DNA of 64,000 nt, from positions 4,757 to 68,756 of the forward strand of contig JANSXN010000003.1 of the NCBI GenBank assembly GCA_024742935.1, given 5' to 3'. This document shows, in pieces, positions 6,291-49,958 of the stretch (within the stretch, counting starts at the first letter, position 1; each line of letters opens with the position of its first letter). Both the position numbers and the translations under genes were made by a program. The notes beneath the pieces were generated by a model. The model saw nothing but the letters and a program-made list of their open reading frames with translations. It searched no databases and had not been told where the DNA came from. This DNA is from Flavobacteriaceae bacterium. Lineage in GTDB: Bacteria; Bacteroidota; Bacteroidia; Flavobacteriales; Flavobacteriaceae.

Positions 6291-7920
6291 GATAAAAAAT
6301 AGAACCATTTTTTCCAATAAGCTTCTGCTGTTGGTGTTTCTTTTTGTCTTTAGTATTCTTTTCAGTTTTTCCGGTTTCTCCCAAATCAAGGCGACGATTG
6401 ACACAACTTCAATCAAAATAGGTGAAGAAATTACGTATCACATTGAAGTTTTGACAGATTCAAGCTCAGTCGTTCTCTTTCCTGAAGGGCAGAGCTTCTT
6501 CCCGCTTGAAGTAATTGAGTTTTACCCCACAGATACCACTTTCGAAAACGAAAAAACCAAACTCATCAAAAAATATGGCCTCACACAATTTGATTCAGGC
6601 AGGTATGTGATTCCGAGTCAACTTTTACGCATCAATGAAAAGGCTTTTTATACAGATTCCTTACTTGTAGAAGTAGCAGATGTTGAAGTGGACACTTTAA
6701 AGCAACCCATGTTTGATATCAAACCTGCTATAGAGGTGCCTACTGTCAAAACTGACTGGTTAAAATACATTCTTTGGGGATTGCTTATCATTGCAATTAT
6801 AGCAGCATTGATTTATTTTATATTGCGTCAAAAGAAAAAAATTGAAGAAGCAAAAAGACAATTACCCCCTTTTGAAGAAGCACTTGTTGCTCTAAAAACT
6901 TTAGACACTTCAGGTTATCTGAAAGAAAATAAAGTCAAAGACTACTACTCATCTCTCACAGAAATTGTAAAACGCTACCTAGACCGCGAAGTCGATGATG
7001 CTGCTCTTGAAAGCACGACTGATGAATTAATTTTAAAGCTGGAGCTTCATAAAGACTCCGGTCATCTGGACTTTGACAAAGCAACTATAAACAGGCTTAG
7101 AGAAATTTTAAAACGGGCTGATTTAATCAAATTTGCCAAAATGCAAATGGAATCGGGTCAGGCTCACCTGGACAGAACAGACATTGAAGAAATCATTAAA
7201 GAAACGCACGAATCCATACCCGAGCCCACCGAAGAAGAAAAACTAAAAGACGCTCTGTATCAAGAAGAGCTTCTGAAGAAAAAGAAAAAACAAAAGCGTC
7301 TCTACATTGCAGGAGGTATTGCCTCCGTAATCATCTTTGGTTTGGGTGTCTTGTCTTTGATATTTGGTGTAAATGAAGTGAAAGACAAGGTATTTGGAAA
7401 TTATACCAGATCCCTAGTTGAACAAACCTGGATAAAAAGTGAGTATGGAAGTCCGGCAGTCATACTTGAAACCCCTGAAGTTTTGGTCAGAAAAACAACT
7501 GATGACGAATTTGTTATTACCAAAAACCTGGATGATATTTTTACGTTTGGAGACATTCAAAAGAAACTCTATATCTATGTGGGAGCAGCTAAAACTCAAG
7601 ATACAACAGCTCAAAATTTGGGAAAATTGCTTGAGGAAAAAATGGTGCTTCTAGAGGAAGCCGGAGCAACAAACCTCATCGTTATGGATGAACCTTTTAC
7701 TACTGAAAAAGGAGTTACAGGAATCAAAGCTGCAGGTGAGTTTAATATCAATTTAGGTGAGAACAAATTTAAAAAAGCAAAAAGCGACTATGAACTTGTC
7801 ATTTTTTCTCAAAATGGAAGCATTCAGGAAATCCTGATAGTCACAGAAAAAGAAGATGTCTATGCGCAACAAATTAAAGAACGTATTTTAAAATCTGTTG
7901 AAATCGAAGTTTTAAAATGA
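6280..7920 (+). CDS. Bat-cluster membrane protein (BatD-like Ig domain, DUF4381-like segment, two TM helices)
   Basis: Signal peptide, IKIGEEI...QFDSGRYVIP beta-domain, TM helix, LKFAK-like motif (LIKFAK), second TM helix; lies between DUF58 and batA. Exact start uncertain. Confidence 0.7.
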   Translation: MLDKIKNRTIFSNKLLLLVFLFVFSILFSFSGFSQIKATIDTTSIKIGEEITYHIEVLTDSSSVVLFPEGQSFFPLEVIEFYPTDTTFENEKTKLIKKYGLTQFDSGRYVIPSQLLRINEKAFYTDSLLVEVADVEVDTLKQPMFDIKPAIEVPTVKTDWLKYILWGLLIIAIIAALIYFILRQKKKIEEAKRQLPPFEEALVALKTLDTSGYLKENKVKDYYSSLTEIVKRYLDREVDDAALESTTDELILKLELHKDSGHLDFDKATINRLREILKRADLIKFAKMQMESGQAHLDRTDIEEIIKETHESIPEPTEEEKLKDALYQEELLKKKKKQKRLYIAGGIASVIIFGLGVLSLIFGVNEVKDKVFGNYTRSLVEQTWIKSEYGSPAVILETPEVLVRKTTDDEFVITKNLDDIFTFGDIQKKLYIYVGAAKTQDTTAQNLGKLLEEKMVLLEEAGATNLIVMDEPFTTEKGVTGIKAAGEFNINLGENKFKKAKSDYELVIFSQNGSIQEILIVTEKEDVYAQQIKERILKSVEIEVLK

Positions 7921-10978: not shown

Positions 10979-12754
10979 ATGAAAACAAGATTAATATTCA
11001 CAACACTGCTCTTTCTGCTTGCAAGCCCATTGTTTGCACAGGTAAGCTTTGTTGCTAAGGTAAGCAAAGAAAAACTAGGCGTAAATGAGCGTTTGCGTGT
11101 AGATTTTGAGATGAATCAGGATGGAGATAACTTTCAACCTCCTCAATTTACTGGATTCAAAGTGGTTGCAGGACCCAACCAATCGGTTAGCAATATGTGG
11201 ATTAATGGAAAGCGCACCTATTCTAAAACCTTTAGTTACTTTTTATCTCCCACAGCCAGAGGCACTTTTACCATAGGACAAGCATCCATTGAAATTGATG
11301 GCGAAATTTATAAAACGGTTCCCATTAATGTTGAAGTTGGCGCTGCAGTTGACACCCCAAAAGACGGTGACAATATAGACATTGCTTCTCAGGGTGACCT
11401 CCATCTGGTTGCTGAAATATCAAAAGCAAGCCCTTATCTCAACGAGGCAATCACTGTTGTTTACAAGCTTTACTTTTCTCCTGAAACATCTATTAGTGGT
11501 TACAGAGTGATAGACAATCCCACTTTTGCTGACTTCTGGAGTCAAAACATCGACAACAATCAAATCCAGGTACAGGAAGGCACTTATCAAGGAAAACCCT
11601 ATTTATATACCATTTTGAGGAACACCTTATTGTATCCTCAAAAAACAGGAAAAATTCAAATTGAACCTCTTTCGCTTGATGTACAGTTACAAGTGAGAAC
11701 AAACAGAAGAGATATTTTTGGGCGACCTTTTATGACCCGAACAAACAGAACGCTCTCTTCTGTAAATAGAACCATAGACGTCAAGCCTCTGCCACTTGAC
11801 GGCCAACCGGCAAATTTTTCTGGAGCTGTTGGCACATTTAATTTAGATGTAAAAACAAGCAAAACAAAACTTGATGCCAGAGAATCTCTGGAATTAACTG
11901 TTGAAATTTCAGGTACAGGAAACTTAAAGCTTTTCAGACCTCCTTCAATAACATCCCCAACTACTTTTGAAGTGTATGAGCCTGAGTTCATTGATCGTGT
12001 TACCACTACTCAATCAGGCATGAGAGGTTCTATTTCTGAGAACTATACCTTGGTCCCCCAGTTTCAGGGAGATTATACAATTGACCCTGTTATTTTCAGC
12101 TATTTTGATCCCACTTCAGGTAGCTATAAAACCATCACTTCCGGTGAACTCTTGATTGAGGTGGAACAAGGCCCTGTGGCAAGTACACCAGCTGCCGGTA
12201 CTGGTTCTCAAGCTGTATATAGACAACCAGTTGTCATGGCAAATGAGCAATTTAAGTATATCAAGTTAGATGCAAACCTTAAAGCAATTGACAGTCCGCG
12301 CTTTTTTAATTCTGTTGCGTTTTGGTCACTTTTTACCGGACCGTTGTTGCTTATCCCATTGTTTATTTTCATAGGAAGAAAACAAAAAAATCTTCAGGCA
12401 GATATCGCAGGACAACGACTCAAAAAAGCAAACAGACTGGCCAAAAAGTATCTTTCTGAAGCTAAGAAAAACAGAGGAAATCAAGCCCATTTCTATGATG
12501 CCCTTGAGCGTGCCTTGCACAACTATCTCAAAGCAAAATTATCGATAGAGACTTCAGATTTCTCCAAAGAACGCATTGAAGGAATTTTACTGGACAGACA
12601 AGTCTCTTCACAAGCAAGCTCAGATTTTATTGCATTACTAAAGAGCTGTGAGTATGCAAGATATACCCCAACTACAGAAGGAGCTATCCAGCTTGATTAT
12701 GATAAAGCTGCAGAGGTAATTTCTACTATTGATAAACAAATTAAAAAGGCATGA
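10979..12754 (+). CDS. batD: BatD family protein
   Basis: Signal peptide, repeated Ig-like BatD domains, GAVG motif, C-terminal TM helix and KCEYARY-like tail (SCEYARY). Start moved to ATG 10979. Confidence 0.9.
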   Translation: MKTRLIFTTLLFLLASPLFAQVSFVAKVSKEKLGVNERLRVDFEMNQDGDNFQPPQFTGFKVVAGPNQSVSNMWINGKRTYSKTFSYFLSPTARGTFTIGQASIEIDGEIYKTVPINVEVGAAVDTPKDGDNIDIASQGDLHLVAEISKASPYLNEAITVVYKLYFSPETSISGYRVIDNPTFADFWSQNIDNNQIQVQEGTYQGKPYLYTILRNTLLYPQKTGKIQIEPLSLDVQLQVRTNRRDIFGRPFMTRTNRTLSSVNRTIDVKPLPLDGQPANFSGAVGTFNLDVKTSKTKLDARESLELTVEISGTGNLKLFRPPSITSPTTFEVYEPEFIDRVTTTQSGMRGSISENYTLVPQFQGDYTIDPVIFSYFDPTSGSYKTITSGELLIEVEQGPVASTPAAGTGSQAVYRQPVVMANEQFKYIKLDANLKAIDSPRFFNSVAFWSLFTGPLLLIPLFIFIGRKQKNLQADIAGQRLKKANRLAKKYLSEAKKNRGNQAHFYDALERALHNYLKAKLSIETSDFSKERIEGILLDRQVSSQASSDFIALLKSCEYARYTPTTEGAIQLDYDKAAEVISTIDKQIKKA

Positions 12755-13500
12755 AAAAAATAATCTGTTTGTTGTTTATAGCAATGAGCCTCTTTGCCTT
12801 TTCGCAAAACGAGCAAAAGTTTGATCAGGGTAAAGTGCATTACAAAGAGTCCAATTATGAAGCGGCTATTTCCTCATGGGAGTCCATTTTAGAATCTGGT
12901 GAGCACTCTGCTGCCTTATATTTCAACTTAGGAAACGCTTACTATCGCATTGATCAAATTGCACCAAGCATTTATTATTATGAAAAAGCGTTGCAGCTTG
13001 CTCCCGGTGACTCTGAAATAAAAAACAATTTGGCGTTTGCTCAAAATCAAACGATTGATATTATTGAACCTTTGCCAAAAAATTTATTCAGTTCTTGGAT
13101 TGAGAGAACCACACAACTTTTTTCTTTTAACAATTGGGCAAAAACTGCTGTCGTATTTATAATTGGTTTTGTACTGTTGTTTTTGTTATACTACTTTTCA
13201 GTTGCTGCAATGAAAAAGCGTCTGTTCTTTATAAGTTCTTTTCTTTCTTTATTCCTTTCATTGGGCTGCGTATTTTTTGCCTTTAATAATTATGCTCAGG
13301 TCAATGACGCTAAAACTGCCATATTATTTGCATCGAGTTCGCAGGTGAGAAGTGAGCCTTTAGAGAGAGCAGATATCTCTTTTGTTATTCACGAAGGCAC
13401 CAAAGTAAAAATCATTTCTGAAGAAGAGGAGTGGGTGCGTATAAAACTTGCCGATGGTAAAGATGGATGGATGATTAAAACAGGTTTAAAACAATTATAA
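12751..13500 (+). CDS. batE: BatE (TPR, two TM helices, SH3b)
   Basis: LYFNLGNAYYR TPR and C-terminal IHEGTKV...DGKDGW SH3b. Confidence 0.9.
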   Translation: MKKIICLLFIAMSLFAFSQNEQKFDQGKVHYKESNYEAAISSWESILESGEHSAALYFNLGNAYYRIDQIAPSIYYYEKALQLAPGDSEIKNNLAFAQNQTIDIIEPLPKNLFSSWIERTTQLFSFNNWAKTAVVFIIGFVLLFLLYYFSVAAMKKRLFFISSFLSLFLSLGCVFFAFNNYAQVNDAKTAILFASSSQVRSEPLERADISFVIHEGTKVKIISEEEEWVRIKLADGKDGWMIKTGLKQL

Positions 13501-13547
13501 GTTTTTAAAATTATTATTATTTTAACAGTAATATTCTTCAGCCTGTT

Positions 13548-13555
13548 TATTTTTG
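13548..13555 (+). promoter_or_regulatory. Bacteroidota sigma-70 -7 element
   Basis: TATTTTTG matches TAnnTTTG, 20 nt upstream of ATG 13576. Confidence 0.6.
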
Positions 13556-13575
13556 CATTCAAATTAATAGACTTA

Positions 13576-13875
13576 ATGCGTCGTTTTCTCAGCATATTTT
13601 TAATTTTACTTTTTGGAGCATTTATAGCTACCCCCACCTTTGTTGTTTTAAATGAAATTCCAATTGACATTTCCAATTTACATACAAGTACTGAAGAAGA
13701 AAAATCTCAGAAACAGAGTACTTTTGAAGAATCTGAAACTAAACGAATACACAATTTCCATGCTTTTGAAGCTACTTTTGAAGGTCTGTTTCAAAAGAAT
13801 ATTTTAAAAAGTCCAAATTCACTTTGGAACGTTATCTACTTTGATATTCATATCCCACCTCCAGAATTAGTCTAG
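13576..13875 (+). CDS. Small membrane-anchored protein ending in ...FDIHIPPPELV (candidate leader/arrest peptide)
   Basis: 99 aa: N-terminal hydrophobic helix, acidic EEE segment, PPP three residues before the stop; has its own promoter. Confidence 0.65.
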   Translation: MRRFLSIFLILLFGAFIATPTFVVLNEIPIDISNLHTSTEEEKSQKQSTFEESETKRIHNFHAFEATFEGLFQKNILKSPNSLWNVIYFDIHIPPPELV

Positions 13876-13893
13876 TTTTTTATCTTAGTTTTT

Positions 13894-13955
13894 TTCCTGA
13901 GCATTCATTTTTATGCTTATCATAAGCAAACTGAATCACTTTGTCAGGAATTTTT
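13894..13955 (+). promoter_or_regulatory. Extended irregular hairpin with U-tract (possible attenuator)
   Basis: TTCCTGA 13894-900 pairs with TCAGGAA 13944-50; ATTCA pairs with TGAAT; apical TGCTTAT-C-ATAAGCA; followed by TTTTT. Confidence 0.4.
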
Positions 13956-14031
13956 CACAATCGCTCTCAGTAGAGTACTCTATTTTGTTCTGATTTAGAA
14001 ATAATAAATTAAATTCATAAATTATAGATTA

Positions 14032-14691
14032 ATGAAAAACTTAGCATTGGTAATTTTACTCCTTGTAGTTTCAAAACCCGGAAACTCCCAAGACAGTGAT
14101 ATTGGCAACTGGTTGATTTATTTTGGAAACAAACAAATCAATGAAAAATGGAACCTGCACCACGAAGTTCAATATCGAAATTTCAACTTTATTGGTGATA
14201 CAGAGCAATTGTTGTTGAGAGCCGGTTTGGGTTACGATTTAAGTGAAAACAACAACAATCTATTGTTGGGTTACGGTTTCATTTATAATGAACCCTACAT
14301 AGCAAATACAAATGAAAAAATAAATTTTAACGAACACCGTATTTACCAACAATTTATCACTCGTCAAAAATTTAACAATCTTTCTGTTCAACACCGCTAT
14401 CGTTTTGAACAACGTTTCATTGAAGAGGATTTTAAACTTCGGCTCCGTTATTTTCTAGGGCTCAACTATACATTGAGTAATAAGGAAATTCTAGATAATA
14501 CACTGTATCTTTCTATGTACAATGAAGTTTTCCTGAATACTGAAGCTAATTTTTTTGATAGAAATCGTATTTATGGCGGAGTTGGGTACCGAGTTAATTC
14601 AAAAGTAAGATCCGAAATAGGTCTAATGAACCAATTAACCTCTGGAGGCTCTGGAAACCAATTCAATATTATTACGTTTTTTAATTTTTAA
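14032..14691 (+). CDS. DUF2490 outer-membrane beta-barrel protein
   Basis: Signal peptide, EVQYR, EHRIYQQF, RYRFEQRF and NRIYGGVGY motifs; terminal Phe. Confidence 0.88.
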   Translation: MKNLALVILLLVVSKPGNSQDSDIGNWLIYFGNKQINEKWNLHHEVQYRNFNFIGDTEQLLLRAGLGYDLSENNNNLLLGYGFIYNEPYIANTNEKINFNEHRIYQQFITRQKFNNLSVQHRYRFEQRFIEEDFKLRLRYFLGLNYTLSNKEILDNTLYLSMYNEVFLNTEANFFDRNRIYGGVGYRVNSKVRSEIGLMNQLTSGGSGNQFNIITFFNF

Positions 14692-14751
14692 ATAATCGGA
14701 AAAGCTGAACACCGAAAAACAAGGTAAGCATCAATAATTAAAACTAAAACC

Positions 14752-15513
14752 ATGAAAAAAATATTTTTACTAAGCATATCTATGCTAATAACAACGCTCA
14801 TTTCTTGTAAAGAAGATTCTTCAAATAAAAAAGAATCAACAGCTCAGAATGTACAAGAAACTATTGAAATAGCACAAGTCCCATTGGTAAATGAGGTATT
14901 AACAAAAGAGGAGCGCGACGCTATGTCTCCAGACGATGTAATTGCTCTCTTTAAAGAAGGAAACGAGCGTTTTATGAATAACAATTTAACGCTTAGAGAT
15001 CATTCTGCACAAGTTAGAAAATCGGCTTCTGGTCAATTCCCAAAAGCAGTCGTATTATCTTGCTTAGACAGTCGTGTCCCTGTTGAAGATGTTTTTGACA
15101 GAGGAATTGGGGATATATTTGTGGGGCGTGTTGCAGGAAATTTTGTGAATGAAGATTTATTAGGAAGCATGGAATTTGGGTGTAAAGTAGCAGGATCAAA
15201 ATTAATTTTAGTAATGGGTCACGAGCATTGTGGAGCTGTTAAATCTGCCATTGATGATGTAAAACTTGGAAACATAACAAGCATGTTGTCAAAAATAAGA
15301 CCCACAGTAGAGACCACTCAATATGAGGGAGACAGAACTTCATCAAATCCAGAGTTTGTTCAACATGTTTGTGAAAACAATGTCTTAAACACTATTGCAG
15401 AAATAAGAGCAAAAAGTCCCATCTTAAAAGAAATGGAAGACAATGGTGAAATAAAAATTGCCGGAGCAGTTTATGATATGGATACCGGAAAAGTAGAGTT
15501 TCTAAATGAGTAA
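14752..15513 (+). CDS. Beta-class carbonic anhydrase, predicted lipoprotein
   Basis: Lipobox LISC; zinc ligands in CLDSR and HEHC; EGNERF. Confidence 0.9.
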   Translation: MKKIFLLSISMLITTLISCKEDSSNKKESTAQNVQETIEIAQVPLVNEVLTKEERDAMSPDDVIALFKEGNERFMNNNLTLRDHSAQVRKSASGQFPKAVVLSCLDSRVPVEDVFDRGIGDIFVGRVAGNFVNEDLLGSMEFGCKVAGSKLILVMGHEHCGAVKSAIDDVKLGNITSMLSKIRPTVETTQYEGDRTSSNPEFVQHVCENNVLNTIAEIRAKSPILKEMEDNGEIKIAGAVYDMDTGKVEFLNE

Positions 15514-15542
15514 CTCATTATAAATCAATTTAAGTGGTTGTT

Positions 15543-15592
15543 AAAAGCCATAAATGCATTATAATTTAAATAAAAGCATTTATGGCTTTTTT
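15543..15592 (+). terminator. Intrinsic terminator between the two carbonic anhydrase genes
   Basis: Perfect 15-bp stem AAAAGCCATAAATGC/GCATTTATGGCTTTT followed by further T residues. Confidence 0.75.
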
Positions 15593-15671
15593 GGTTTATT
15601 GAAGTAAGAAATATGCTTTATTTATAAAGGTGTTTTTTTAAAAAACCTATATTTGTTTTAATTAAAAAACA

Positions 15672-16307
15672 ATGGACACATTCTATAAATCACTTCTTGA
15701 CAACAACAAAAAATGGGTGGAAAGCAAACTGGCTTTAGACCCTGAATATTTTGAAAAACTTGCAAAAGGACAACAACCACCATTGTTGTGGATTGGATGT
15801 GCAGACAGCAGAGTTCCTGCAAATGAGATTATTGGAGCTCAACCCGGTGAAGTATTTGTACATAGAAACATTGCCAATATGGTTGTGCACACTGATATTA
15901 ATATGCTTAGTGTGGTTGATTATGCTGTAAATGTTTTAAAAGTAAAACATATTATTGTTTGTGGTCACTATAATTGCGGAGGTGTGCAAGCCGCTATGGG
16001 TAACAAGTCTTATGGTATTATTGACAACTGGATAAGGCATATAAAAAACACCTATCGCCTTCACAAAAAAGAGCTTGACGCCATTGAAGATGAGCACAAA
16101 CGCTTTGACCGTTATGTGGAGTTAAACGTAAGCGAACAGGTATTTGATCTTGCCAAAACGTCTATTGTTCAAAACGCTTGGAAAAACAATCAGGATTTAA
16201 TGCTTCACGGCTGGGTGTATTCAATCAAAAAAGGTGTCATTCAAGAGGTTGTTTCCAGAGTAGCAAACAACTCAAAACTCGATGAAGTGTATCAGTTAGA
16301 TTTCTAA
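15672..16307 (+). CDS. can: Cytoplasmic beta-carbonic anhydrase (Can/YadF type)
   Basis: CADSRVP, HRNIAN and GHYNCGG; own -7 box TATATTTG at 15648-15655. Confidence 0.92.
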   Translation: MDTFYKSLLDNNKKWVESKLALDPEYFEKLAKGQQPPLLWIGCADSRVPANEIIGAQPGEVFVHRNIANMVVHTDINMLSVVDYAVNVLKVKHIIVCGHYNCGGVQAAMGNKSYGIIDNWIRHIKNTYRLHKKELDAIEDEHKRFDRYVELNVSEQVFDLAKTSIVQNAWKNNQDLMLHGWVYSIKKGVIQEVVSRVANNSKLDEVYQLDF

Positions 16308-16922: not shown

Positions 16923-17279
16923 ATGGCAAGAGATGAAGCATTAAAAACCCGTTGGGAAACCCTTGTAAAATTGTTGAGTAACAAATTTGCCGATGGCGAC
17001 AAACTCGATTTGGATGCCATAATTTATTTAGTTGGCATTCAGGAGTTGGGTCGTTTTCAACGCAAATTTAAGAAAGATGAAAAACTCGACCTTATGCACA
17101 TCGCTATTTGCAGGCTGCTGGAGCCTTTTGGATTTTATGAATTTGACTATCAAGATGAAGATGGCTGGCCACATTATACTGTTAAAGAACAATTGCCTCC
17201 TCTCAAAGCCGGCGAACAATCCATTTTAATGAAAGAGGCTATTGTACAATATTTTCTGGAGAAAAAGCTTATCACTTAA
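16923..17279 (+). CDS. Conserved hypothetical protein
   Basis: Clean ORF with a TATCTTTG promoter box at 16867-16874; GIQELG and HIAICRLLEP segments; no function recognised. Confidence 0.75.
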   Translation: MARDEALKTRWETLVKLLSNKFADGDKLDLDAIIYLVGIQELGRFQRKFKKDEKLDLMHIAICRLLEPFGFYEFDYQDEDGWPHYTVKEQLPPLKAGEQSILMKEAIVQYFLEKKLIT

Positions 17280-48768: not shown

Positions 48769-49086
48769 ATGCACATCTACAACGTCACCATAAACATAGA
48801 AGAAGACATTCACGACCGCTGGTTACTTTGGATGAAAGAGGAACACATCCCGGAAATGCTGGCAACCGGAAAATTCAGCGCTGCAAAAATGTGCCGCGTT
48901 CTGGTGGAAGAAGAAATGGGCGGACTCACTTATGCCGTGCAATACACTACAGACAGTAAAGAAACATTGGAAAAATATTATCAAGAAGACGCAGACCGCC
49001 TGCGTTCAAAAAGCACTATTTTTGCCGGAAAATTTGTCGCATTCAGAACAGAGCTTCAAATCATTAGTGAACACACATCCGGATGA
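48769..49086 (+). CDS. DUF4286 family protein
   Basis: [22 protein letters not shown] and FRTEL. Confidence 0.85.
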
Positions 49087-49958
49087 GAAAATTTTATAAG
49101 AAAGAACAAAGAGCAAAAAACACAAACAGCACTTCAGAGGGAACTAATGAAAGTGAAGTGAGTGCAAAAAAGCACTTAGGCCAGCATTTCTTAAAAGATG
49201 AGCACATCGCTCAAAAAATAGCAGACACACTCACCTTACAAGGCTATAAACACGTTATCGAGATTGGCCCCGGAATGGGCGTGCTTACCAAATACCTCAT
49301 TCAAAAAGACATCGACCTCATCGCGATGGATATTGATACAGAATCTGTTGCTTATCTTAACTCCAGTTTTATTTCACAGCACAGTGATCTCCTTAAAACC
49401 AAAAATTTTAAAGTCGCAGAGGCCGATTTTTTAAAAATTGACCTTTCAGATTACTTTAGAGACACACCCTTTGCTATCACAGGAAATTTTCCATACAACA
49501 TCTCCACCCAAATCGTTTTTAAAATGCTGGAATGGAGACATCAAATCCCGGAATTTACCGGTATGTTTCAAAAAGAAGTGGCTCAGCGCATTTGTGAAAA
49601 ACCGGGCAGTAAGACCTATGGTATCCTTTCCGTTTTGGTTCAGGCGTTTTATGTTGCAGAGTACCTGTTCACCGTTCCACCTTCCGTTTTTAGCCCGCCG
49701 CCAAAAGTGGATAGTGGTGTGTTAAGACTCATCAGAAAAGATGATTTTTCACTTCCTTGCAATGAAAAATTATTCTTTACAGTTGTAAAAACTGCTTTCG
49801 GTCAACGCCGAAAAACATTGAGAAACAGTTTAAAATCTTTCGCTTTAAGCGAAAATTTAAAAGAAGATACTATCTTTGACAAACGTCCGGAGCAATTAGG
49901 CTTTGAAGTCTTTATTGCTTTAACCCAAAAGATAGAAAGCGATGCAGTTTCAAATTAG
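49083..49958 (+). CDS. rsmA: 16S rRNA adenine dimethyltransferase RsmA/KsgA
   Basis: [30 protein letters not shown] and QRRKTLRN. Confidence 0.97.

Follow-up and report, generated by a model that had tools for sequence, protein, structure and literature searches.

A leader reading frame ending in a near-invariant PPP motif heads inorganic-carbon operons in Flavobacteriales and is a candidate pausing peptide

The stretch of DNA analyzed here (hereafter the window) comprises 64,000 nucleotides (nt) from a Flavobacteriaceae bacterium (GenBank assembly GCA_024742935.1, contig JANSXN010000003.1, positions 4,757 to 68,756 of the forward strand); coordinates without a locus label count from its first letter. 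A 99-codon open reading frame (ORF) at 13576–13875 (+; coordinates including the stop codon), here termed the leader ORF, is a real gene under purifying selection and the first gene of an operon that continues with genes for a DUF2490 protein and a lipoprotein beta-carbonic anhydrase (beta-CA). With moderate confidence, comparative analysis suggests that its product may be a cis-acting, exported candidate pausing peptide of this inorganic-carbon operon, the pause of which would depend on a PPP motif close to the C-terminus. The reading as a nascent-chain sensor acting in cis is based on the combination of a membrane-targeting helix, a predicted exported motif, a spacer that is kept in length, the position of PPP near the stop codon, the placement as first cistron, the duplication of the gene in cis, and the lack of a confidently predicted fold.

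The leader ORF and its family

The leader ORF begins with ATG and encodes MRRFLSIFLILLFGAFIATPTFVVLNEIPIDISNLHTSTEEEKSQKQSTFEESETKRIHNFHAFEATFEGLFQKNILKSPNSLWNVIYFDIHIPPPELV, the C-terminus of which reads ...HIPPPELV. The three proline codons (P94–P96; CCA CCT CCA at 13855–13863) are followed by GAA TTA GTC TAG (E-L-V-stop, with the stop codon at 13873–13875), and thus form a candidate pause site three codons before the stop. A preliminary description of this region had reported an ORF with an N-terminal transmembrane (TM) segment and PPP, and all of these parts are found where it had placed them. The ending given there as HIPPPE omits the last two residues (LV). The leader is the sole ORF of 50–160 amino acids (aa) in the window with PPP among its last 12 residues, and PPP is rare in the long ORFs of the window, with one instance in 18,002 residues. 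The only other PPP in these long ORFs belongs to a 291-aa ORF at 49083–49958 (+), in the context ...FSPPPKVDS....

Among close orthologues, the ratio of nonsynonymous to synonymous substitution rates (dN/dS; Nei-Gojobori) is 0.14–0.40 for the whole leader ORF, compared with approximately 0.1 for the neighboring DUF2490 gene. When the ORF is divided into parts, the ratio is 0.12–0.21 in the N-terminal part, 0.14–0.75 in the middle, and lowest in the last 13 codons (0.02–0.26). These values indicate that the leader ORF is translated and that its sequence is under selection. A spurious ORF is ruled out by these ratios together with the 71 clusters of the family described below.

To collect the family, 1.84 billion representatives were searched with a HMMER profile, with a cut-off of E ≤ 1e-3 and clustering at 50% identity; a word-index search found just five close relatives with 61–95% identity. 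The 71 clusters are from Flavobacteriales, and nearly all members have 93–104 aa (mean length 98.5 ± 1.9 aa) and align end to end. The named members are listed as "hypothetical protein" in Polaribacter, Zunongwangia, Psychroserpens, Aurantibacter, Flavobacterium, and Ca. Ulvibacter, and further family loci are from Mesonia, Salegentibacter, and Planktosalinus. Carriers that can be cultured include Zunongwangia, Polaribacter reichenbachii or vadi, Mesonia, Flavobacterium cheniae, and Psychroserpens algicola. The family is unannotated: in Pfam and NCBIfam no match was found for the window ORF even at E ≤ 10, for its paralogue, or for 80 members. Four matches to DUF4179 among the members were rejected as TM-helix noise.

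The PPP motif is kept in 88 of 95 family sequences. Among the seven sequences that lack it, five keep PP, one has a single proline, and two are truncated fragments. In 80 aligned sequences, conservation is 97% for P94 and 100% for both P95 and P96, within the C-terminal consensus [S/I/T]-P-P-P-[E/K/D] that follows a short stretch of alternating hydrophobic residues. The distance to the stop codon is similarly constrained, with three residues after PPP in 49 sequences, four in 21, and five in 11, such that 81 of 88 have three to five (range 2–7). The third positions of the proline codons differ among relatives, which indicates that the prolines themselves are selected rather than an RNA motif. 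The preliminary description had proposed examining whether a C-terminal HxPPP and its distance to the stop are conserved while the middle diverges. This holds for PPP, for the distance, and for the middle; the histidine is kept in close relatives only.

At the other end of the protein, a basic N-terminus precedes a hydrophobic helix (residues 4–25; 13585–13650) with conserved F13 (91%) and P20 (97%), the latter in the context [T/A]-P-[T/S]. This segment is identified as a signal-anchor by AlphaFold, conservation, and charge. It is followed by a juxtamembrane acidic, sensor-like region (13666–13701) consisting of D31-x-S33 (81% and 77% conserved, respectively) and E40-E41-E42 (96–98%). A net charge of +1.3 precedes the helix, and the 22 residues that follow it carry –5.0; based on this distribution and the positive-inside rule, the N-terminus is expected to face the cytoplasm and the tail to be exported. 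A cleavable signal peptide was rejected, as no small residues at positions –1 and –3 follow the hydrophobic core, and a PEP-CTERM-like sorting signal was also rejected, as neither a TM helix nor a basic tail follows PPPE.

The spacing of these elements is conserved to a large extent. The EEE motif lies exactly 21 residues past the TM motif (TPT) in 69 of 73 sequences, and the distance from EEE to PPP is 52–54 residues in 58 of 73. The variable spacer between them (residues 43–86; 13702–13833) keeps its length of approximately 45 residues and not its sequence, with the commonest residue averaging 23% per column versus 49–56% in the flanks. The AlphaFold model based on the 80-sequence alignment has a helix at residues 2–25 with a predicted local distance difference test score (pLDDT) of approximately 90, a variable spacer at 51–62, a remainder up to the last ten residues at 51–63, and the last ten residues at 75; the predicted TM-score (pTM) is 0.33. 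No confident fold is predicted outside the TM helix.

Start codons form another feature of the family. Although AUG dominates in Bacteroidota and TTG or GTG starts are unusual, many members have TTG or GTG as the sole possible start (L007:5001, L014:5959, L015:5989, L016:6001, L017:5980, L018:5983, L023:5001, and L024:4081, with L numbers denoting the loci of relatives). This pattern suggests that translation of the leader is initiated weakly by design.

Operon position and transcription

Gene neighborhoods were compared in a sample of 23 units, in which a search with the sub-alignment pattern YF[ED][LIM]x[SI]PPPE gave nine loci and 12 exact-protein look-ups were made. In all 23 units, the leader is the first cistron and lies directly 5′ of a gene for SulP, DUF2490, or beta-CA. 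A beta-CA gene occurs within two genes of the leader in 23 of 23 units, and is the sole constant of the neighborhood. The comparative test put forward in the preliminary description thus gave a positive result, with PPP near-invariant and the leader always heading a unit that contains CA. The gene order varies among lineages. The usual order in Flavobacteriaceae is the Bat operon, the ORF, a SulP gene (~526 aa, without STAS), and a cytoplasmic beta-CA gene, with a convergent CvpA gene. In the window, L001, and L012, the order is ORF, DUF2490, lipoprotein CA, and cytoplasmic CA, whereas L003 and L010 have tandem units (BatE, ORFa, DUF2490, CA, terminator, ORFb, SulP, CA) with one leader copy per unit and 34–39% identity between ORFa and ORFb. 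The order is ORF, beta-CA, and SulP-STAS in L023 and L025, and ORF, SulP, CA, and CA in Flavobacterium (L019–L021), where no Bat operon is found nearby. Neither secA, secDF, nor yidC lies directly 3′ of the leader in any of the loci examined, and none of the 23 units has a transition-metal homeostasis operon behind the leader. In the Flavobacterium loci, genes for LysR regulators are located on the opposite strand (L019:3395–4333, L020:3929–4870, and L021:3099–4040, all on the minus strand); these abut the leader unit in L020 and L021, while a ferritin gene intervenes in L019. The LysR protein may act as a transcriptional CO2/bicarbonate regulator on top of the leader.

The upstream neighbor of the leader in the window is a Bat-type operon (BatD ending at 12754; BatE-like TPR/SH3 protein at 12751–13500), and in most Flavobacteriaceae loci the leader begins 58–84 nt past BatE. 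The leader could accordingly be the last gene of the Bat operon, which ends at 13500, with a product such as a ligand for the BatE SH3 domain and without relation to the CA genes. A contig from an RNA run that spans the junction between BatE and the ORF fits such an arrangement, as does the general ability of proline-rich tails to bind SH3 domains. However, the leader precedes SulP-CA-CA in the Flavobacterium loci in which Bat is not nearby, and the second copy in L003 and L010 immediately precedes SulP, at a distance of 2 kb from BatE and on the far side of a terminator. The leader also has its own conserved promoter box, and the type of the ORF tracks the downstream gene rather than BatE. 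For example, the single ORF of L011, which is located beside BatE and before SulP, shares 52–55% identity with ORFb and 36–41% with the ORFa types. From the locus survey and this grouping, the leader travels with the downstream inorganic-carbon genes and not with Bat. An origin as a Bat gene or SH3 ligand is therefore extremely improbable, and was rejected on the basis of the Flavobacterium loci and the placement of the paralogues.

The main rival explanation, possible although somewhat doubtful, is a stable small single-pass membrane protein that would serve the inorganic-carbon machinery once translated, such as an accessory subunit, a tether, or a regulator, with PPP(E) as a structural or docking motif. 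Purifying selection extends over the whole ORF, with a middle dN/dS as low as 0.14 in one pair of orthologues, and the residues F13, P20, D31, S33, and EEE are very specific and fixed in spacing. An alternating hydrophobic pattern immediately before PPP would also suit a structural motif. In addition, no RNA switch between the pause site and the downstream start was found by folding or RNAalifold, and a place as first cistron with co-transcription would suit a structural gene equally well. Against these points, the gene that follows the leader may encode an inner-membrane SulP, an outer-membrane DUF2490 protein, or a soluble beta-CA, leaving no constant partner, and one genome may retain two diverged copies in cis. 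These two patterns, i.e., the change in the class of the downstream partner and the retention of diverged copies in cis, are the reasons to disfavor a stable protein. Moreover, no confident fold is predicted, the sole invariant C-terminal feature is a motif that slows ribosomes and lies 2–7 residues from the stop, and weak start codons (TTG or GTG) are used by several members.

The promoter named in the preliminary description is confirmed as a –7 box of the Bacteroidota type, TATTTTTG at 13548–13555 (+), which is a perfect match to TAnnTTTG located 20 nt 5′ of the leader ATG. Among related units, 15 of 22 have a perfect TAnnTTTG 4–24 nt 5′ of the leader start within the 100 nt searched, compared with approximately 1.3 expected from the background. 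No perfect box lies between the leader and DUF2490, in agreement with the same description; in the 22 spacers between the leader and the next gene (2,637 nt in total), the count is zero versus approximately two expected. As a bare motif, the box is about as frequent in the window as chance predicts (97 matches versus 87 expected), and the argument for the promoter consequently depends on the position and conservation of the box. Two perfect matches occur inside the leader (TACTTTTG; 13719–13726 and 13773–13780, both +), at codons for T-F-E, and these are not conserved in L001.

Transcript data were obtained as Logan contigs from two probable RNA runs, X6 and X9, of relatives that are approximately 90% identical; the RNA label of X6 is by inference only, and the depth of a contig reflects expression poorly. 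In X6, a 3,147-nt contig is unbroken over 12405–15513, and covers BatD, the junction between BatE and the ORF, the ORF, the spacer, DUF2490, and CA. This contig ends approximately 50 nt past the CA stop codon at the terminator, and a separate contig from 15684 covers the next CA gene. The data favor co-transcription of the ORF with DUF2490 and CA; an internal 5′ end or processing at the spacer hairpin is also possible.

The spacer RNA and a candidate pausing mechanism

The 156-nt spacer between the leader and DUF2490 contains an imperfect 57-nt hairpin (13894–13950) followed by AUUUUUC, and this feature extends over 13894–13958 (+) with AAUUUUUCAC. The hairpin and its U5 tail are present as noted in the preliminary description, in which they were considered an intrinsic-terminator attenuator (13894–13955) with read-through set by pausing at PPP. 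When folded alone, the window hairpin has a free energy of –14 kcal/mol and exceeds shuffled sequences (z = –2.9; 2 of 200 shuffles as good). Its 3′ arm and U-run, TCAGGAATTTTTCAC (13944–13958), are the sole conserved block in the spacers of five DUF2490-type relatives, and a long imperfect hairpin with a U-rich tail can be drawn in all five DUF2490-type units. Uncoupling at polyproline is also known to favor premature termination (PMC5021804). Nevertheless, the hairpin is weak (–12 to –14 kcal/mol) and loop-rich, and it was not called by a sigma-70/terminator scan, which missed both hairpins and is uninformative for this phylum. Over its full length, the window spacer shows no unusual degree of structure (z = –0.26 and –0.86 in two computations), and the RNAalifold covariation term is positive, i.e., unfavorable. 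A ribosome that is paused at PPP or terminating does not overlap the 5′ arm, which starts 20 nt downstream of the stop codon. Furthermore, the 17 spacers of the SulP and CA types have hairpins without U-runs, which excludes this mechanism for the whole family, and no alternative antiterminator pairing was found in the spacers by constrained folding or RNAalifold. Attenuation by this hairpin is thus improbable, and would be restricted to the DUF2490 lineage.

Spacers are on average more structured than dinucleotide shuffles, with a mean z of –1.8 and negative values in 21 of 22. Of the 13 SulP-type units, 9, from at least five independent lineages, have a stem-loop without a U-run between the leader and SulP that ends 14–19 nt upstream of the SulP ATG (L003:8523–8545 and L010 at approximately 6340–6365, and also in L011, L014, L004, L005, L007, L016, and L017). 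These hairpins begin 40–60 nt past the leader stop. Given the missing U-run and the unrelated arm sequences between lineages, both an intrinsic terminator and a conserved operator are excluded for the SulP-type hairpin, which may represent an RNA element with conserved structure that borders the initiation region in a phylum lacking Shine-Dalgarno sequences. A bias in base composition is also shared. The 3′ half of the leader (13726–13875 in the window) has a C content of 0.19 versus 0.12 for G, a pattern found in 20 of 22 units, whereas the downstream genes are opposite (C 0.15 versus G 0.23). This bias hints at a likeness to the rut-like "bubble" of cruR, and part of it is due to the proline codons.

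For a pausing leader, which we consider the most likely explanation, we propose the following course of events. Transcription would proceed from the TATTTTTG promoter through the ORF, DUF2490, and the lipoprotein CA gene to the terminator at 15543. The N-terminal signal-anchor would target the nascent peptide to the inner membrane, with the N-terminus inside and the tail exported, and peptide-bond formation would slow at PPP, three codons before the stop. During such a pause, with the second or third proline in the P-site, EEE would lie 51–56 residues behind, either at the SecYEG channel or immediately beyond it. The release may then be set by the fate of the exported acidic segment, through pulling force, charge, or a ligand, and the length of the pause may set downstream expression, either through spacer termination that depends on Rho or uncoupling, or through access to the downstream start. 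In this model, pausing and action in cis are inferred, as are the signal and the output.

Several observations weigh against this model. Pauses at PPP are normally relieved by elongation factor P (EF-P) and can be weak. The spacer length ranges from 46 to 253 nt across units, and RNAalifold on four SulP-type and five DUF2490-type spacers gave consensus energies near zero and no convincing conserved structure. When the ribosome was introduced as a constraint in partition-function calculations, the downstream start did not open consistently, and its mean unpaired fraction changed from 0.44 to just 0.49 with the ribosome at PPP and to 0.51 at the stop. The spacer hairpins begin 20–60 nt past the stop codon, beyond the stretch that a ribosome at either PPP or the stop would cover, and a stem overlapping the footprint of the paused ribosome in the style of SecM or CutF was not evident in the spacers folded. 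The low dN/dS of the middle part in one pair and the very specific N-terminal motifs also fit the stable membrane protein considered above. Finally, X9, which is the shallower of the two runs, has an ORF contig (13630–13862, depth 5) that is separate from a DUF2490 contig (13927–14369, depth 28) that begins in the loop of the spacer hairpin. This split could reflect an internal 5′ end, processing, or poor coverage of the U-rich stretch.

In a more specific version of the pausing model, for which we see little likelihood, the leader would be an arrest peptide that works as a "ruler" and, through the rigid spacing between EEE and PPP, brings the three or more negative charges of EEE to SecYEG or slightly beyond it during the pause, where it would read the membrane potential or the periplasmic cation concentration or pH. 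The potential, a cation, or pH acting on the EEE carboxylates would pull the chain or fail to do so, and would thereby set the pause time. The force peak for acidic stretches, a result of Ismail and coworkers from 2015, reportedly lies at 47–49 residues from the P-site. Approximately 45 residues span the distance between the peptidyl-transferase center and SecYEG or the membrane (PMC7886326). In passages of two papers that discuss this work, acidic stretches are described as feeling a pulling force that is ascribed to the membrane potential and can release SecM arrest (PMC6028853, PMC12562832, on Ismail et al. 2015).

Comparison with known leader peptides gives close functional analogues in CutF (PPPRL before the stop), CruR (RAPP), and uA_LPPP, and in this respect supports the preliminary description. 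CutF of Rhodobacter capsulatus, a DUF2946 protein and the leader of cutFOG, ends in ...GPPPRL; its PPP is required and the effect is modulated by EF-P, and copper bound to the exported CxxxC motif prolongs the pause and leads to translation of cutO (PMC9973294; bioRxiv 10.1101/2025.02.05.636593). The likeness to CutF includes a first cistron of approximately 100 aa with an N-terminal export signal, a conserved exported sensor motif whose spacing to a C-terminal PPP is fixed, with this PPP two to three residues before the stop, a poorly structured or unstable product, and a structured spacer before the regulated gene. However, no match to the DUF2946 profile was found at E ≤ 1 among 80 family members, and the family alignment has no conserved Cys or His column (CXXC or CxxxC). 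The metal site of CutF consists of Cys/His whereas the leader family has D-x-S...EEE, the CutF signal is cleavable whereas the signal-anchor is uncleaved, and copper genes are replaced by bicarbonate/CO2 genes. The leader family also belongs to a phylum without Shine-Dalgarno-based initiation, and its spacer hairpin leaves the start codon uncovered.

CruR of Bordetella pertussis, another DUF2946 protein, has a RAPP motif, conserved motif spacing, a 162-nt spacer, and an involvement of Rho (PMC9426467). As in the leader family, it is located at the operon head, has two motifs at conserved spacing, is predicted to be poorly structured, and is followed by a long spacer (162 nt versus 156 nt in the window); the 3′ part of its ORF is also richer in C than in G and there constitutes a rut site (PMC9426467). 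CruR differs in its pause motif (RAPP rather than PPP), in the cytoplasmic binding of its copper ligand via CXXC, and in an action that is independent of the signal peptide. For uA_LPPP of Planctomycetota (Fujiwara et al. 2024), toeprinting located a stall with the second proline in the P-site (PMC10987492). This peptide shares with the leader an N-terminal signal, a variable middle, and an xPPP that is conserved among the final 15 residues; in contrast, it is located upstream of secA, monitors export, belongs to another phylum, and has no homology to the leader.

The arrest peptides that monitor Sec or YidC (SecM, MifM, VemP, and ApcA/ApdA/ApdP) are likewise membrane-targeted or exported leaders with an arrest a few codons from the stop; the leader family, too, has a conserved motif among the last ~15 residues behind an N-terminal targeting signal, and their release by translocation or insertion force may be counted as a further likeness. 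In those systems, however, a stem overlaps the footprint of the stalled ribosome, and no such overlap is seen in the leader family; their arrest motifs are RAGP, an acidic cluster, or a C-terminal proline at the stop, instead of [S/I/T]PPP[E/K/D]. In mgtP and mgtL of Salmonella, proline codons in the leader couple translation speed and the status of EF-P or prolyl-tRNA to the transcription of a transporter (PMC3641672, PMC5299641), which is comparable in principle, but these peptides are very short, cytoplasmic, and devoid of a membrane anchor or sensor motif, and they rely on well-defined alternative stem-loops that were not found in the leader family. Overall, the leader family is similar to known systems in architecture and fails the defining features of each. 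The literature found on arrest peptides of Bacteroidota covers only the NSP-stop and NAP-stop upstream ORFs linked to secA or secDF, and does not describe the leader family.

Downstream genes and biological significance

The gene that follows the leader in the window (14032–14691, +) encodes a DUF2490 protein (PF10677, E = 1.6e-49) with a weak match to DUF481, a signal peptide, and an aromatic ending (...FFNF) at its C-terminus, and is likely an outer-membrane beta-barrel. The next gene (14752–15513, +) encodes the lipoprotein beta-CA (Pro_CA, E = 1.2e-41), which has a signal peptide with the lipobox LISC and belongs to the NCBIfam PRK15219 subfamily (NF011765, 300 bits versus a cutoff of 221). 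An intrinsic terminator at 15543–15596 (+) closes the unit, with a stem at 15543–15590 and a U6 tail (–19.8 kcal/mol, z = –4.1). Library matches and fold energy thus bear out the arrangement given in the preliminary description, i.e., DUF2490, the lipoprotein CA, and a strong terminator at 15543. In the window, DUF2490 is paired with a periplasmic lipoprotein beta-CA, and in L004 it is located among SulP genes; it is likely an outer-membrane channel for inorganic carbon.

A separate unit at 15648–16307 (+) consists of a TATATTTG box (15648–15655) and the gene for a cytoplasmic beta-CA (15672–16307). In L003 and L010, the corresponding region, bounded by the genes for the lipoprotein CA and for the cytoplasmic CA, holds the second leader and SulP (L003:7965–10196 and L010:5783–8017). 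The window, L001, and L012 lack both of them, and the window equivalent (15514–15671) is just a 159-nt spacer with the terminator and the TATATTTG box. This locus of the source organism thus appears to be devoid of SulP. Farther downstream, a 118-aa ORF at 16923–17279 (+), located between CvpA and pheS, has no Pfam domain and is uncharacterized; it is strongly syntenic, occurring in most Flavobacteriaceae loci examined, with 61–97% identity.

Exported pausing leaders have so far been linked to protein-export genes (SecM, MifM, VemP, and the RAPP peptides) and to copper genes (CutF and CruR). If the pausing model is correct, a non-homologous family would extend this principle to inorganic-carbon and pH physiology, i.e., SulP, DUF2490, and beta-CA, and to the marine Flavobacteriales, which are abundant degraders in algal blooms with important anaplerotic CO2 fixation. 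The output mechanism would then have to differ from the textbook cases, as this phylum initiates translation without Shine-Dalgarno pairing. With 300 nt of ORF, three motifs amenable to point mutation, and one spacing rule, the system is compact and testable. A conserved family of "hypothetical proteins" receives a name, and DUF2490 gains a functional context together with a periplasmic CA. Should the ruler version be true, bicarbonate uptake and CA expression would be coupled to membrane energization or periplasmic ion chemistry, and this would be the first control of inorganic-carbon acquisition of the arrest-peptide type.

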